NCBI GenBank assembly: GCA_041640595.1
Contig: JBEPZY010000002.1
Coordinates: 50,884 to 114,883 of the forward strand
Reading direction: 5' to 3'
Length of the DNA: 64,000 bases
Source: Gemmatales bacterium
GTDB taxonomy: Bacteria; Planctomycetota; Planctomycetia; Gemmatales; HRBIN36
Shown: one piece after another, positions 19,564 through 58,714 of the stretch
How positions within the stretch are numbered: the first letter of the stretch is position 1
Layout of the letters: every line of letters begins with the position of its first letter
Translations under genes and position numbers: made by a program
Notes under the pieces: generated by a model
Seen by the model: only the letters and a program-made list of their open reading frames with translations
Database searches by the model: none
What the model was told of the DNA's origin: nothing

Positions 19564-19712
19564 GCTAGCGACGGGGTTCGGCCGCGAAACTTTTTATGTG
19601 TGATGTGATTCGGATTGCCGGCCTAGAGCTGGCGGTGGGATTCGAACGTGAAGACTTTATGCCTGCGATGTGATTCGGATTGCCAAACTAGAGCTAGCGG
19701 TGGGATTCGAAC
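19564..19712. repeat. tRNA-linked tandem repeats (64-65-bp period) containing the tRNA-Thr 3' end
   Basis: GCTRGCG...GGRTTCG units start at 19564, 19628 and 19693. The first two are followed by TTTATG...GATGTGATTCGGATTGCC...CTAGA. Confidence 0.8.
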
Positions 19713-19763
19713 CCACAACCTGCGGTTTACAAAACCGCTGCTCTACCGTTGAGCTACGCTAGC
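19692..19763 (-). tRNA. tRNA-Thr(UGU), CCA not encoded
   Basis: Reverse complement GCTAGCGTAGCTCAACGGTAGAGCAGCGGTTTTGTAAACCGCAGGTTGTGGGTTCGAATCCCACCGCTAGCT folds as a cloverleaf: anticodon stem GCGGT/ACCGC, anticodon TGT, T-loop TTCGAAT. Confidence 0.97.
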
Positions 19764-22991: not shown

Positions 22992-23355
22992 GCCGACAGG
23001 TGCCTGACGTGGTGCCAGTCCATCGCCGGGCAAGAGACGGCAGGTGTCAGTTCACCGACAATGCTGCGAGGAATGCGTCAGCCTGCCGGGATGCTCGGCA
23101 TCTTGCCGCGGTGATCGGCTGAGCGCTGCGTCGGGAGAATAGGGAAGTACGGTGCGAATCCGTCGCGGGGCCGCCGCTGTGTTCGGCCAGGCTCCACGGC
23201 TGGGGTAGCCCGAACGGGACTATCCGGCCACTGCGGTCTGTGCGTGGCGAACCAGTCTCCGCATCGGCAGGAGGCATTCGCCATGGACACGTTTGCCGTG
23301 GGAAGGCTGTCGTGGGGCCGCTATGAGCCGTCAGCCAGAAGACCTGCCTGTCGGC
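22992..23355 (+). promoter_or_regulatory. Cobalamin riboswitch with long insertions
   Basis: P1 GCCGACAGG(22992-23000)/CCTGTCGGC(23347-23355); AATAGGGAAGTACGGTGCGAATCCGT; GCCGCCGCTGT; GCCACTG; GGGAAGG; B12 box AGCCAGAAGACCTGCC. Confidence 0.92.
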
Positions 23356-23518
23356 GTCGGCAATCCACGGTGGGGAATGTCTCCGCTGTGGGGAGGATGC
23401 TTCGGCCCTCAAGCATCCGGCGGACGCGCGACTTTCTGCCAAACCCGGGCCGCGTCGGCGCCTCGGGGGCCGAAGCAGTATGCTTCCTGAAGCCCGGCCC
23501 GGCAGAAAGGAGCGTGTC

Positions 23519-55479: not shown

Positions 55480-57294
55480 TCAGTAACTCGGCGGCTTGTC
55501 GCTGGGCGGGAAACCGTGGAACTGTTGGCCGACAAAAATCCATTCCTGGGCGATTGCGTAGCCGTAACGCTGAATGACCACAGCTGGCCCCGATTGCACG
55601 CTCGCAAATCCGGATTGGGCTGATTGCGACAACGGACCGACGCAGAGAAAAGTTTTGCCCGCAAATCGCTCCGGATCGGCCAGCGGATTGGGTCGCCAGA
55701 GATCGTACTGTGAAAAGCGGAGATCGCTGGCCAGGCTGATGCAGTAAACCCGCGGTTGATCCGGAAGGTAGAAAGCCAGTTCCGCGGCCAGACCGTACCA
55801 GGTGGCAACAATGATCGGTTCCTCGCCTTGCTGTCGAAGAGCTTGACGCCACTGATGCACGTGCAACGCTAATTCCCGCCAGCCCTGCAACCGACAGGTC
55901 GGATCAAAACGGCGTGGCCAGAGGTCCTTGTCGGTTTGGCCGAGCCAACCAGCGATCGCTGGCAGCAGTCCCGTGCGGTAGGCAATGTCCGGTCGGTGCA
56001 GAGTCAACGTGATAGCGACTGCCAGCAACGTCGAGATCACCAGCAGGACGCGCACGCTTCGGCTCCACGACTCGCAGGGTTTCGAGACGTGTGCCAGCCA
56101 GACCGCTACCAGAGGCACTGCCGCCAGGTAAGCCGGTGCGGGCCAGTTCGGTTGAATCGGTGTTCGCAGACTAAAGCCGGCAAACACGGCAAACACCGGC
56201 CAGGAGAAACTCAACAAGAACAGGCCGACCGGCCACGATAGGCCCAAGCGGATTCGCCTTTTGTCGGACAAAACGAACCATGTAGCCGCCAGCCAGGCCA
56301 GCATGCCGGCGCCGAATAGCAAAGCCGTCTGAACTCCGATGTATTCGAACATGCCCCACCATCGCCACGATCTTGACCCGGTCAGACTGGCCTGTCGAAA
56401 CACGTGGCGAAACGTTACCCAGTCATGCTGAGCGTTCCAGTAAAGGATCGGCCCCGCGCCGACGACAAGGGCCACCGTCAGCATGACCGCCAGCCGTTTG
56501 AGTAGCATTCCCCGCTCCGCGACGAAATTAGTCGCTTTCGGCCCGGCCGTTGCAAATGCGGCAGACAAAAACAGAACCAGGCAAAACGGGAACAGCACCA
56601 TCGTCGGTTTGGCCAGTATGCCCAGGCCGGTAATCAGCCCCAAACCGAACCAGGCCAGTGTCGTACCGTGCGTGCTTTTCCCTGGCAGGAAACACTCGCG
56701 GACTTGCCCATCCAGCGGTGCACTGCCAAACATGGGAGGTTCGGTCAATCGTCTCATTCCCAGAGCGTGCCACGCGAACACTAACGCCCACTGCCAGCAG
56801 CACAAGAACGGCGAGTCAATGGTAATCAGCGTGCTGATGACGCTATGGTGGGGAGCCAGCATCAGGGCAAGCATGGTCAGATACGCCAGTTTCGGAGAAC
56901 CACTCACCCGCCAGGTCAAACAAAAACATCCCAGTGCCAGCAGCTGGCCGCAGATGACGGCTGGTAGTCGTACCGCCGGCATTTTTGTGCCCTGCTGATC
57001 GAGCAACCAGCTGCCGCAGCACACATCGGCAGCGCGGATCAGCCAGGCAACAAGCGGTCCCTTGCTGTAATAGCACCAGTCCAGTTGTCTCGACCAGTCC
57101 CAGTAATAAGCCTCATCCGGCGCCAGATCGAACGGACATAGCCAGACCAGATAAACCACCCGCATCAGTCCGGCAACCAGCACGGTGATCCCGGCCGCCA
57201 TCCACCACCGTGTTGCCGTGCGCTGGCCCGGGAGGGTAACTTCAGAGGAACCCCATGCAGCAATGCTGTTGTGCTTGTGCAGGACCAGTTGCAT
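55480..57294 (-). CDS. ArnT/PMT-family (GT-C) membrane glycosyltransferase
   Basis: DEAYYWDWSRQLDWCYYSKGPLVAWLI, ITIDSP, GLGILAK, WNAQHDW, NWPAPAY; many TM helices. Confidence 0.88.
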   Translation of the reverse strand: MQLVLHKHNSIAAWGSSEVTLPGQRTATRWWMAAGITVLVAGLMRVVYLVWLCPFDLAPDEAYYWDWSRQLDWCYYSKGPLVAWLIRAADVCCGSWLLDQQGTKMPAVRLPAVICGQLLALGCFCLTWRVSGSPKLAYLTMLALMLAPHHSVISTLITIDSPFLCCWQWALVFAWHALGMRRLTEPPMFGSAPLDGQVRECFLPGKSTHGTTLAWFGLGLITGLGILAKPTMVLFPFCLVLFLSAAFATAGPKATNFVAERGMLLKRLAVMLTVALVVGAGPILYWNAQHDWVTFRHVFRQASLTGSRSWRWWGMFEYIGVQTALLFGAGMLAWLAATWFVLSDKRRIRLGLSWPVGLFLLSFSWPVFAVFAGFSLRTPIQPNWPAPAYLAAVPLVAVWLAHVSKPCESWSRSVRVLLVISTLLAVAITLTLHRPDIAYRTGLLPAIAGWLGQTDKDLWPRRFDPTCRLQGWRELALHVHQWRQALRQQGEEPIIVATWYGLAAELAFYLPDQPRVYCISLASDLRFSQYDLWRPNPLADPERFAGKTFLCVGPLSQSAQSGFASVQSGPAVVIQRYGYAIAQEWIFVGQQFHGFPPSDKPPSY

Positions 57295-57672
57295 AGAGGG
57301 TTGCGAGATTGGCGGTGCCCTTTCCGGCTAAGCCCAGCCAAACAGGCCAGACACCGAGCGTTATGTTTCTCGATGCGGCCAGCCATTGGGAGACGCATGG
57401 TAACACAACCTGCCGCACTGCCGCAAGGGCACTTTCCTCGCTCCTGGTTCCTTACCCGCCTTACGCTATGGTCGGCTTCTCAACGGGTGTTCACGGCGTG
57501 GTTGGCGAGAACGGCTGGGCAGTCTTTGCAACTTTTACCGCCGATAGGTACACCGAGTTTGCAAAAATTACAATCCGTGAGAAGCGCGTCTCGTGGTGTA
57601 ACAGTCGCAATAGCGCCGTAACCTGGCGAGCCAAAGACGGTTACGTACAAATTCGGACAAAAGTTTGGCGAT

Positions 57673-57688
57673 TGGCACATTTTGTGCT
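57673..57688 (+). promoter_or_regulatory. sigma54 (RpoN) -24/-12 promoter
   Basis: TGGCACATTTTGTGCT = GG-N10-GC, one mismatch from TGGCAC-N5-TTGCW; predicted TSS near 57699. Confidence 0.7.
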
Positions 57689-57698
57689 TGTGTCAGAA

Positions 57699-57940
57699 CG
57701 GTGATTATGAGCTGCTGAAGCATCTCGACCGGCAGACTGCGAGAGGCAGCTTTCCCCGCGTCGGCTACGGTGCCCCCCGACCGTAGCTGGAGCGAGTGCC
57801 GTCCGGAAGGTTTCCCCGCCCTTCCGTGTATGCCTCGCTGATGCCTCTTCAGGCCGGTGCTTCTCCTCATCTTCCCGCCAGGCCCCATCTTACCTGGCCC
57901 CGAAGCCACCTGCGACCCCGGCGGGTGGCTTGTTTTTTTT
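57699..57940 (+). ncRNA. Putative structured small RNA with C-rich loops
   Basis: Bounded by the sigma54 promoter and a terminator; nested stems with CCCC-containing loops; no credible ORF. Confidence 0.6.
57903..57940 (+). terminator. Rho-independent terminator
   Basis: AAGCCACCTGC-GACCCCG-GCGGGTGGCTT followed by G and T8. Confidence 0.85.
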
Positions 57941-58027
57941 GCGCTTCCGTGCATGGTTCTACTGGCAGGTCGCACTCGCTTTGGCTATAATCTTTCCTCG
58001 GACAGTTCGAGGCCGGAGCAAACCACC

Positions 58028-58483
58028 ATGACTGACCAGTACAAATATTTCCGCAGCACGCTGCGGGGCGGCGTGTTGATTGTTGAAATGACCGAGCCAA
58101 GCCTGCACGGCGATTTAATGGAAGAGCAACTTCGCCAGGATTTGTTCCAGGCCTGGCAGCAAAGCGGGGCGGACGCCGTGGTGCTTGATTTTTCCCAGGT
58201 GCGATACGTCACCAGCGCTGTTCTGCGGGCCTTGATTTTGCTGCGCCGCGAAGTTGTTTCCCGTAATGGCCGTATTGCTCTCTGTGGAATACAAGATGAG
58301 CACGTTCTGCGAATTTTCACCACGACGCGACTAATAACCAGTAGCGGCACCGCGCCCGCGCTCTTTCAGGCTTATGCCGATTTACCCACGGCACTGGCGG
58401 AATTGCGGCCAGGTTTGTCTGAAGAGACTCCCTCCGCAACGGCGTCAAACCCCGAGGCTGCTTCTCCGAAAATCGGCCCTTGA
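58028..58483 (+). CDS. STAS-domain protein (anti-sigma-factor antagonist)
   Basis: VVLDFSQVRYVTSAVLRALI...GRIALCGI..VLRIF.TTRL; own TATAAT at 57986-57991 and GGAG RBS. Confidence 0.85.
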   Translation: MTDQYKYFRSTLRGGVLIVEMTEPSLHGDLMEEQLRQDLFQAWQQSGADAVVLDFSQVRYVTSAVLRALILLRREVVSRNGRIALCGIQDEHVLRIFTTTRLITSSGTAPALFQAYADLPTALAELRPGLSEETPSATASNPEAASPKIGP

Positions 58484-58714
58484 TCGCGCCGGATTGACCG
58501 TCAGCGTTGCGGTAGGAGCACTGGTCTCCTCCAAGGTCGCTTGTTAACTTGCTTGGCGTCTGAGTTTGTCGGCTGGCCTGCCGCTGGTGGCGTTCCGCTC
58601 CAATTTTGTCCCGTCGCAACGAAACGTGCGCCCGCACCACTGCGCCGTAACTGAAAGTTCCGCTCCTATTTTGCCCCAATCGCGGCCCTTTGGTTGGTTC
58701 ATCTCATCCGGTTC

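Follow-up and report, generated by a model that had tools for sequence, protein, structure and literature searches.

A predicted sigma54-controlled small RNA with C-rich loops in Gemmatales planctomycetes

Introduction

What is encoded in the interval between a glycosyltransferase gene and a STAS-domain gene in the genome of a Gemmatales bacterium? The interval lies in a 64,000-nucleotide (nt) stretch of DNA that was analysed as a whole and is called the window here (contig JBEPZY010000002.1 of assembly GCA_041640595.1, positions 50,884 to 114,883). A first-pass annotation of this window had proposed, at 57673-57940, an independent small RNA (sRNA) of about 240 nt behind a sigma54-type promoter, highly structured, displaying CCCC in every loop, devoid of a credible open reading frame (ORF) and belonging to no family that it recognised. 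The gene is very probably real, and its fold as well as the conservation of its promoter and of an upstream enhancer motif could be followed by sequence comparison through the genus and, in part, through the order. From these features we infer transcription, dependence on sigma54 and a mode of action in which exposed runs of C would pair with G-rich ribosome-binding sites of several mRNAs; the evidence for each of these steps, and the alternatives to them, are presented below.

Results

A conserved structured RNA within the genus

The minimum-energy fold of positions 57699-57942 (plus strand), computed with ViennaRNA, reaches -110.9 kcal/mol (z = -6.29), a stability equalled by none of 200 dinucleotide shuffles, and matches the architecture that had been described, the promoter element TGGCAC-ATTTT-GTGCT and all stems and loops being recovered in place (Table 1). 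The opposite strand folds with z = -2.38. All five hairpin loops of the minimum-energy fold (TTTCCCC, GCCCCCCG, TTTCCCCGC, CCCCATCTTA and GACCCCG) contain CCCC, and a repeated GGA motif is absent from them. Sites of the form TGGCAY-N6-TGC number 139 in the genome, compared to 84 expected from composition; six CCCC are found within the 243 nt that follow the site in the window, and this cluster exceeds chance because the next best of the 139 sites holds three. The claim of a CCCC in every loop is accurate for the RNA of the window, and it fails for the arm loop of one orthologue (G002) and for small 5' hairpins, which lack this tetranucleotide.

BLAST searches against 40 relatives retrieved the region from the three remaining genomes of the genus (G001, G002 and G003), and nothing convincing outside the genus. 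In all four genomes the RNA precedes the STAS gene and is encoded on the same strand, and in all three orthologues it is preceded by a -24/-12 element TGGCAC/T-N5-TTGC within otherwise diverged flanks. The 5' domain has diverged among the four genomes. Apart from two loop positions they share an identical 3' part (TCTTCCC, the GCCAGG hairpin and the terminator), so that the 3' half of the linker, TCTTCCC, is unchanged throughout, and the GCCCCCCG-type loop reads G(U)GCCCCCG in each of the four.

The orthologues fold alike, with z-scores of -4.53, -4.66 and -4.90. RNAalifold predicts 54 pairs from the alignment of the four sequences, 11 of which are changed on both sides, compared to 4.6 in shuffles (none of 500 reaching 11). 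The proportion of alignment cells that are paired is 93.0%, as against 88.7% with shuffled partners (again 0/500), and it drops to 37-50% when the partners are slid by one to three columns. In the helix of the GCTACGGT hairpin all 11 pairs are maintained (100% paired), and five of them show compensatory changes between the window genome and its relatives. The stems of the GCCAGG hairpin and of the terminator never vary among the four orthologues, and these two 3' hairpins are therefore uninformative on pairing within the genus. The check for homologues and covariation that the first-pass annotation had suggested has thus yielded three orthologues near the STAS gene, with 11 compensatory pairs out of 54 in favour of the fold.

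The conserved segment could, in principle, be a small protein-coding gene, or a DNA element such as a set of binding sites or a repeat, with folding that is incidental. ORFs of 32-135 codons do overlap the region on both strands, but none is common to the four orthologues, which differ from each other by insertions and deletions of one base; one orthologue has no plus-strand ORF of at least 12 codons, and an ATG start is found in only one. Moreover, substitutions in the stems are compensatory, the fold signal is specific to one strand (z = -6.29 versus -2.38), the RNA is present as a single copy in its genome, and it is bracketed by a promoter and a terminator. An explanation of this kind is highly improbable, and the original judgement that no credible ORF is present agrees with the lack of an ORF common to the four genomes.

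The family likewise went unrecognised in Rfam 15: at the gathering score, no family matched at the RNA when the whole window was scanned (the matches were a tRNA and a cobalamin riboswitch elsewhere), and at E <= 10 the RNA region gave three weak and unrelated matches only (HOXA11-AS1_5, sR43 and ar14).

A family of related RNAs across the Gemmatales

A covariance model was built from the genus alignment, starting downstream of the promoter and containing no promoter sequence. In 151 genomes of the order it detected 19 further places at E <= 0.1, which read as multi-hairpin RNAs with UUCCCCC loops, a C-rich linker and a terminator of the type GCCACCCGC-loop-GCGGGTGGC. Among the 16 distant matches that were fetched, five have a strict sigma54 motif upstream, and looser motifs (CGGCAC-N5-GTGCA and TGGCAC-N5-TCGCT) precede two more. 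Matches of the model in the window's own taxonomic family outside the genus were weak (E 0.03-0.1) and were rejected as coding sequence or plain terminators.

A joint pattern of promoter and terminator, scanned over a collection of contigs, gave at least 120 matches, 119 of which were re-matched for classification. At least 21 among these 119 listed loci have two to five CCCC loops, a T-rich tail and a C content of 0.35-0.49 versus a G content of 0.21-0.30, and they form a class sharply separate from the rest, where zero or one CCCC loop is found. Record titles of the 21 loci are Gemmataceae, Gemmatales, Planctomycetota or 'Bacterium HR36', together with three 'uncultured Alcaligenaceae' from one study. 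This class of 21 loci consists of planctomycete-type records, and the other matches (in Streptomyces, proteobacteria etc.) are chance matches. The three bins labelled 'uncultured Alcaligenaceae' (L073, L105 and L119) carry typical family members; their titles are probably wrong, or the contigs mis-binned.

Within the order, the joint pattern is found in 31 of 267 genomes and in 23 of 96 genera, always once per genome, compared to one genome for the reversed pattern. In the taxonomic family of the window it occurs in all four genomes of the genus and in none of the 11 other genomes. A scan at the level of the class (401 genomes, at least 85% complete) gave 10 matches inside the order and one in the 294 genomes outside it, and this lone match, the start of which resembles coding sequence, is probably due to chance. 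Since the joint pattern is strict, such counts are lower bounds. Five large or complete genomes from other genera were also scanned for a pattern consisting of the terminator plus CCCC, and none of them matched.

Judged from these comparisons, the RNA belongs to a family found across Gemmatales planctomycetes. Its smallest members measure about 105 nt, have a single C-loop hairpin and occur in several copies per genome; the largest reach about 260 nt and have five or six hairpins. The copy in the window extends this family beyond the Gemmataceae, with an invariant 3' part of its own.

Promoter, enhancer and shared structural elements

The promoter of the family reads TGGCAC-N5-(T/G)TGC(A/T)TT. 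A TTAC[AC] motif starts between -101 and -109, relative to the T of TGGCA, in 18 of 24 long-form members; among the outliers, two have it at -115/-116 and three only at about -126. A second copy is located 19-24 base pairs (bp) further upstream in nine of the 24, and in the orthologues of the genus the second upstream element is found at about -147, in inverted orientation in two of them. TTAC[AC] was absent from the patterns and from the model by which the 24 long-form loci were found, the TTACA pattern having been applied later and for short forms only. The presence of rpoN, on which the proposed promoter depends, was verified in the genome (Sigma54_DBD, 214 bits), which also encodes eight strong Sigma54_activat proteins (206-251 bits), none of them inside the window. 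Ten of 477 loose sigma54-like sites in the same genome have TTACA at the right distance, with no clear regulon. With the promoter present in four of four genomes of the genus and at five of 16 distant loci, and with TTAC[AC] at a fixed distance, the notion of an independent structured RNA controlled by sigma54 and an activator is supported; such control is a prediction, well supported by conservation.

Runs of at least four C fall into hairpin loops with four or more closing pairs in 88 of 212 cases, compared to 15.3 +/- 4.1 (maximum 21) in 20 shuffles that kept the runs in place, in a count over 36 sequences of which eight are chance matches. Each RNA of the family features three to seven near-identical UCCCCC-type motifs, mostly in apical loops and with the terminator loop included, and C-rich unpaired linkers are found in all members.

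A central arm, composed of a GGAGG-type stem, a UUUCCCC loop and an outer helix, is present in all 14 members examined, including that of the window. When taken from each member's own minimum-energy fold, the outer helix differs wholly in sequence among members, with three to five pair types per position, and comprises at least six pairs in 11 of the 14. If arm strands are swapped between members, 41% of positions pair, and pairing is complete in one of 110 combinations.

The terminator stem CCRCCYGC/GCRGGYGG with its C-rich loop is also kept across the family, and the terminator of the window (57903-57940) fits it. RNAalifold recovered only this terminator from a MAFFT alignment of 28 members, and for this reason the named helices were counted and the arm was compared member by member. 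In the 28-member alignment, the inner stem of the arm and the terminator (17 pairs) are 90.5% paired, as against 81.9% with shuffled partners and 36-50% with partners slid, and the covariation score of these two helices is 0.352, as against 0.194 when shuffled (0/500 shuffles in both comparisons). The search pattern dictates six of the terminator pairs; its R/Y positions were free to vary, and they covary, with A-U in 20 cases, G-C in eight and none unpaired. Three distant members fold with z-scores of -4.91, -4.58 and -6.46. The GCCAGG hairpin is an element of the window's genus, and the 3' bulge of the arm, CGACCCA in Gemmataceae members, is absent from that genus, the RNA of the window having GTGTATG at this place.

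Expression data and independence from neighbouring genes

Twenty listed runs from 15 studies contain the stretch or DNA nearly identical to it; most are metagenomes of hot springs and microbial mats. Two of these runs are recorded as RNA, and positions 57200-58600 were compared with the contigs of four runs. In one RNA run (X20) the sole contig, 173 nt long (57737-57909), lies inside the RNA, with none on the flanking genes. In the other (X19) all 1.4 kb are covered, and a contig at 57659-58018 (depth 69) spans both promoter and terminator. Contigs show neither ends nor strand, and DNA may be present in RNA libraries; run X20 hints weakly at a small transcript of high abundance, and run X19 is uninformative. 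Population variants were noted in other hot-spring runs at 57689 (T>C), 57699 (C>T), 57830 (A>G) and 57933 (one T fewer); none of the four positions is in a stem, 57830 being part of an internal loop in the central arm.

In each of the four genomes of the genus the RNA immediately precedes the STAS gene in the same orientation, and this would also be the position of a cis-acting 5' leader or attenuator of this gene, the product of which resembles anti-sigma factor antagonists, with regulated read-through at the terminator; the contig of run X19, which extends from the RNA past the terminator to 58018, could be taken in the same sense. At the 17 loci outside the genus, however, the neighbours are others, often on the opposite strand. 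A Pfam scan of 51 flanking ORFs at 21 loci identified STAS in the genus only, and elsewhere GatA amidase (two loci), GatB, homoserine dehydrogenase (two loci), a PurQ-type amidotransferase and LytB, as well as an aminotransferase, a sulfatase, MlaD, EutC and others, on either strand. Given that the neighbours vary in this way outside the genus, the RNA is no leader of the STAS gene; the constant association with one downstream gene family by which riboswitches and leaders are recognised is missing. The terminator, furthermore, is a strong one, with 11 bp and T8; no alternative pairing that could serve as an anti-terminator was noticed, and a sigma70-like promoter follows the terminator, its -10 box (TATAAT or TACAAT) being kept at the same place before STAS in the orthologues. 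Regulation in cis is scarcely credible on these grounds, and gene order indicates that the RNA is an independent gene. Two details of the first-pass annotation agree with this: the upstream gene, for a PMT_2-type glycosyltransferase, is divergent (minus strand), and the STAS gene has its own TATAAT, within the element CTGGCA-18-TATAAT at 57962-57991.

Short forms and related loci

The combined pattern of TTACA, promoter and CCCC revealed three loci per genome in two representatives of a single genus (L192, L195 and L197 in G019; L193, L196 and L198 in G029) and one in another genus (L194 in G027). The short forms, of about 105 nt, consist of a single hairpin GGGCC-GAGUCCCCC-GGCCC, a linker that includes CUUCCCCCAACCUAUCCACGA and a plain terminator, and their enhancer is at about -95, one helical turn nearer than in the long forms. 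Long forms, too, contain the linker motif CCCCC(A)ACCUAUC of these RNAs, and the RNA of the third genome (G027) measures about 130 nt and has four or five C loops. One short copy (L195/L199) adjoins the gene for a 1001-amino-acid hybrid kinase of the domain order PAS x4-HisKA-HATPase-REC. The same pattern was considered as a measure of prevalence and rejected: it matched 47 of 151 genomes, its reversed control matched about 32, and the pattern is therefore useless for this purpose, being informative only where several loci per genome proved to be short sRNAs.

A second candidate for a sigma54-type small RNA, of about 150 nt, was noticed outside the window at G000:C9:116315-116470 (L188 266-420). 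It features TGGCACCGTCCTTGCT, TTAC at -101, a hairpin GGAGAG-GCCCAAC-CTCTCC followed by CGACCCTCCCC, which resembles the central arm and bulge of the family, and a terminator-like hairpin with AATCTTTTT. This candidate is kept in G001 (81%) and G002 (84%) and has no Rfam match at E <= 1.

Mode of action

According to the mechanism proposed here, an enhancer-binding activator would bind TTACAA-containing sites about 105 and 138 bp upstream, and the sigma54 promoter at 57673-57688 would then drive a trans-acting RNA of about 240 nt, ending at its own terminator. Runs of four to six C would be exposed in the hairpin loops, the junction, the C/U-rich linker and the terminator loop; these would pair with G-rich sites at or near the ribosome-binding sites of several mRNAs and would block translation without Hfq, as for sX13 of Xanthomonas and the 6C RNA of actinobacteria. 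We regard this sigma54-driven, trans-acting sRNA that pairs with G-rich ribosome-binding sites as the best explanation of the locus, with moderate confidence in the statement as a whole.

The genome clearly uses Shine-Dalgarno sequences: the frequency of AGGAGG-type words is highest at about -13 to -10, and GGGG occurs between -19 and -5 at 136 of 2480 crude starts (5.5%), compared to 3.0% and 3.6% in control intervals. Pairing of the C runs with a G-rich subset of starts is therefore feasible. A scan for duplexes between the unpaired segments and starts (346, versus 176 inside genes, of 3417, at <= -18 kcal/mol) was discarded as circular, because the starts had been picked by Shine-Dalgarno-like motifs.

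Several observations weigh against the proposed mechanism or the breadth of the family. CCCCC is an imperfect complement of the dominant Shine-Dalgarno sequence GGAGG, and the perfect 11-mer complement of the short-form linker was no commoner than control in five genomes. The invariance of the 3' part in four species, stems included, exceeds what a pairing seed needs, and many near-identical loop motifs on one RNA are also a hallmark of sponge RNAs. No activator gene was found among the 51 + 19 ORFs that flank long- and short-form copies, the strict pattern is present in just 12% of the order's genomes and in 0/11 others of the window's own taxonomic family, and the coverage in run X19 continues across promoter and terminator.

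A perfect match of 22 nt (E 5.8e-4) exists between 57862-57883, i.e. the linker and the 5' arm of the GCCAGG hairpin, and G000:C3:497327-497348 (L002 1501-1522). The latter segment lies antisense inside an ORF for ACR_tran (RND transporter), and the mRNA of this ORF, as a perfect complement of the RNA, is a candidate target. Part of the match consists of linker letters peculiar to this genome, and the best homologues of the transporter in G001 and G002 are about 30% identical, with none found in G003.

The array of C-rich loops might also act as a protein sponge, sequestering a protein that binds C runs, or Rho, with the amount of free protein set through sigma54. Rho prefers C-rich, G-poor RNA, and the RNAs of the family are of this kind (C 0.35-0.49 versus G 0.21-0.30), with a long unpaired linker that is C-rich and G-poor. 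The three to seven near-identical UCCCCC-type motifs per RNA, the one in the terminator loop included, would suit a sponge, as would the variation in hairpin number from one to six between genera around a constant motif, which is typical of sponge RNAs, and the lack of variation in the 3' part among four species suggests that more than pairing constrains it. Nevertheless, no protein emerged as a candidate for binding C runs, a search for Hfq in the 95%-complete genome found none, and CsrA, encoded in two copies, binds GGA, which the loops of the RNA do not carry. The C-rich-loop RNAs that have been studied, sX13 and 6C, act by base pairing. By analogy with them, pairing is the most likely mode of action, and a sponge, though the main alternative, appears unlikely.

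CsrB and RsmZ titrate CsrA, and CrcZ is a sigma54-dependent sponge that titrates Hfq. A sponge system with a sequence logic opposite to that of Csr/Rsm, in which UCCCCC loops together with the C-rich, G-poor linker would titrate a C-specific protein or Rho, is a still more doubtful proposition. If a sponge were at work, one conserved activator could reset translation or termination globally in planctomycetes that lack Hfq, and three copies of 105 nt as against one RNA of 260 nt would represent different ways to set the number of binding sites.

Features of the locus

The features of the locus are compiled in Table 1. Three further elements of the window were recorded. An ORF of 131 codons (57309-57704, plus strand) spans the enhancer region into the promoter, has no Pfam match and is probably no gene. 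The two Rfam matches elsewhere in the window are a cobalamin riboswitch at 23099-23365 (plus strand, 55.9 bits) and a tRNA at 19692-19763 (minus strand, 76.5 bits).

Table 1. Coordinates of the predicted small RNA gene, its parts and its neighbours in the window (aa, amino acids).
Feature	Position	Strand	Remarks
PMT_2-type glycosyltransferase gene, 604 aa	55480-57294	-	upstream neighbour
Distal upstream repeat TTTGCAACTTTTACC, possible second activator site	57525-57539	+	TTACC at -138; weaker of the two
Proximal activator-like sequence TTTGCAAAAATTACAA	57558-57573	+	TTACAA 57568-57573, at -105 from the T of TGGCAC
Sigma54-type promoter TGGCAC-ATTTT-GTGCT (TGGCAC-N5-GTGCT)	57673-57688	+	GG 57674-57675, GC 57686-57687; predicted start near 57699
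Predicted small RNA, ~240 nt	57699-57940	+	ends inferred from promoter and terminator, unmapped
Multi-branch 5' domain	57728-57858	+	closing helices persist in orthologues with one- and two-sided changes
Outer stem ACCGGC/GCCGGT	57728-57733 / 57853-57858	+	closes the 5' domain
Outer stem AGAGGCA/TGCCTCT	57742-57748 / 57842-57848	+	nested in ACCGGC/GCCGGT
Junction TTTCCCCGC	57751-57759	+	within the multi-branch 5' domain
First hairpin GCTACGGT/ACCGTAGC, loop GCCCCCCG	57764-57771 / 57780-57787	+	
Central arm, outer helix AGCGAG/CTCGCT	57791-57796 / 57834-57839	+	whole arm 57791-57839, with internal loops
Central arm, inner hairpin CCGGAAGG/CCTTCCG, loop TTTCCCCGC	57803-57810 / 57820-57826, loop 57811-57819	+	
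C/U-rich linker GCTTCTCCTCATCTTCCC	57859-57876	+	unpaired in the fold; candidate seed
Second hairpin GCCAGG/CCTGGC, loop CCCCATCTTA	57877-57882 / 57893-57898	+	genus-specific
Intrinsic terminator AAGCCACCTGC-GACCCCG-GCGGGTGGCTT	hairpin 57903-57931, T8 57933-57940	+	11 bp, then G and T8
Sigma70-like promoter CTGGCA-18-TATAAT of the STAS gene	57962-57991	+	10/12 matches; outside the RNA
STAS-domain protein gene, 151 aa	58028-58483	+	Pfam STAS 7.2e-10; downstream neighbour

Discussion

The locus provides a concrete and conserved candidate for a planctomycete regulatory RNA, with a promoter of defined class, an enhancer motif that may lead to its activator, and runs of C that can be tested. A full-text search of the literature found no regulatory small RNA in planctomycetes or Gemmata, and the RNA family is apparently undescribed. 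New here are a member from outside the Gemmataceae, short forms present in multiple copies, the enhancer phasing and a hint from metatranscriptomes. If pairing is the mode of action, then Xanthomonas, actinobacteria and planctomycetes, which belong to widely separated phyla, would share a chaperone-free solution in which C-rich loops are directed against G-rich ribosome-binding sites. With three short copies at one extreme and a single long multi-hairpin RNA at the other, the family is a natural experiment in the growth of a regulator by added hairpins. The lineage that carries the copy in the window occurs in hot-spring metagenomes.

Because it has no Rfam match, the RNA is a member of none of the systems compared here, and comparison is one of likeness. 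According to its published description, sX13 of Xanthomonas carries C-rich apical loops on three stems and represses mRNAs with G-rich motifs at their start, Hfq being dispensable, in a host where about 5% of genes have such motifs at their ribosome-binding site (PMC3771888). The RNA of the window is similar in its stable stems with C-rich apical loops, and GGGG is found in the Shine-Dalgarno interval of 5.5% of starts here. Unlike sX13, it comes from another phylum, is at least about twice as long, contains four to seven C runs, and has a sigma54 promoter with an enhancer and no fixed gene neighbourhood. No Rfam 15 family was matched at the gathering score that would indicate homology to sX13, and whether Rfam 15 includes an sX13 model was left unchecked.

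The 6C RNA is a short RNA with two C-rich loops. The published account of this RNA in actinobacteria, also termed B11, describes C-rich loops that bind several mRNAs via multiple G-C pairs and without Hfq or ProQ (PMC6486639). C-rich loops and hosts of high GC content are common to both RNAs, whereas phylum, promoter type and size differ, and the 6C model of Rfam was not among the matches of the RNA region at E <= 10.

As regards control, Qrr1-5, GlmY and CrcZ are sigma54-dependent sRNAs with upstream activator sites, which act with Hfq or other proteins. The -24/-12 promoter with upstream activator sites is the same arrangement, and like the Qrr genes the family includes multi-copy forms, with three paralogues of about 105 nt in some Gemmataceae genomes. 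In contrast to these sRNAs, no Hfq was found here, no activator gene adjoins the RNA and the composition of the seed is different; no Rfam match points to homology, and the promoter class alone is shared. CsrB and RsmZ, finally, consist of many hairpins with the same short GGA motif in their loops, repeated in numbers that vary between taxa. A repeated loop motif and a variable number of repeats are found in the present family as well, with CCCC(C) in place of GGA. By analogy, therefore, this RNA would work most like sX13 and 6C, and would be controlled like Qrr, GlmY and CrcZ.

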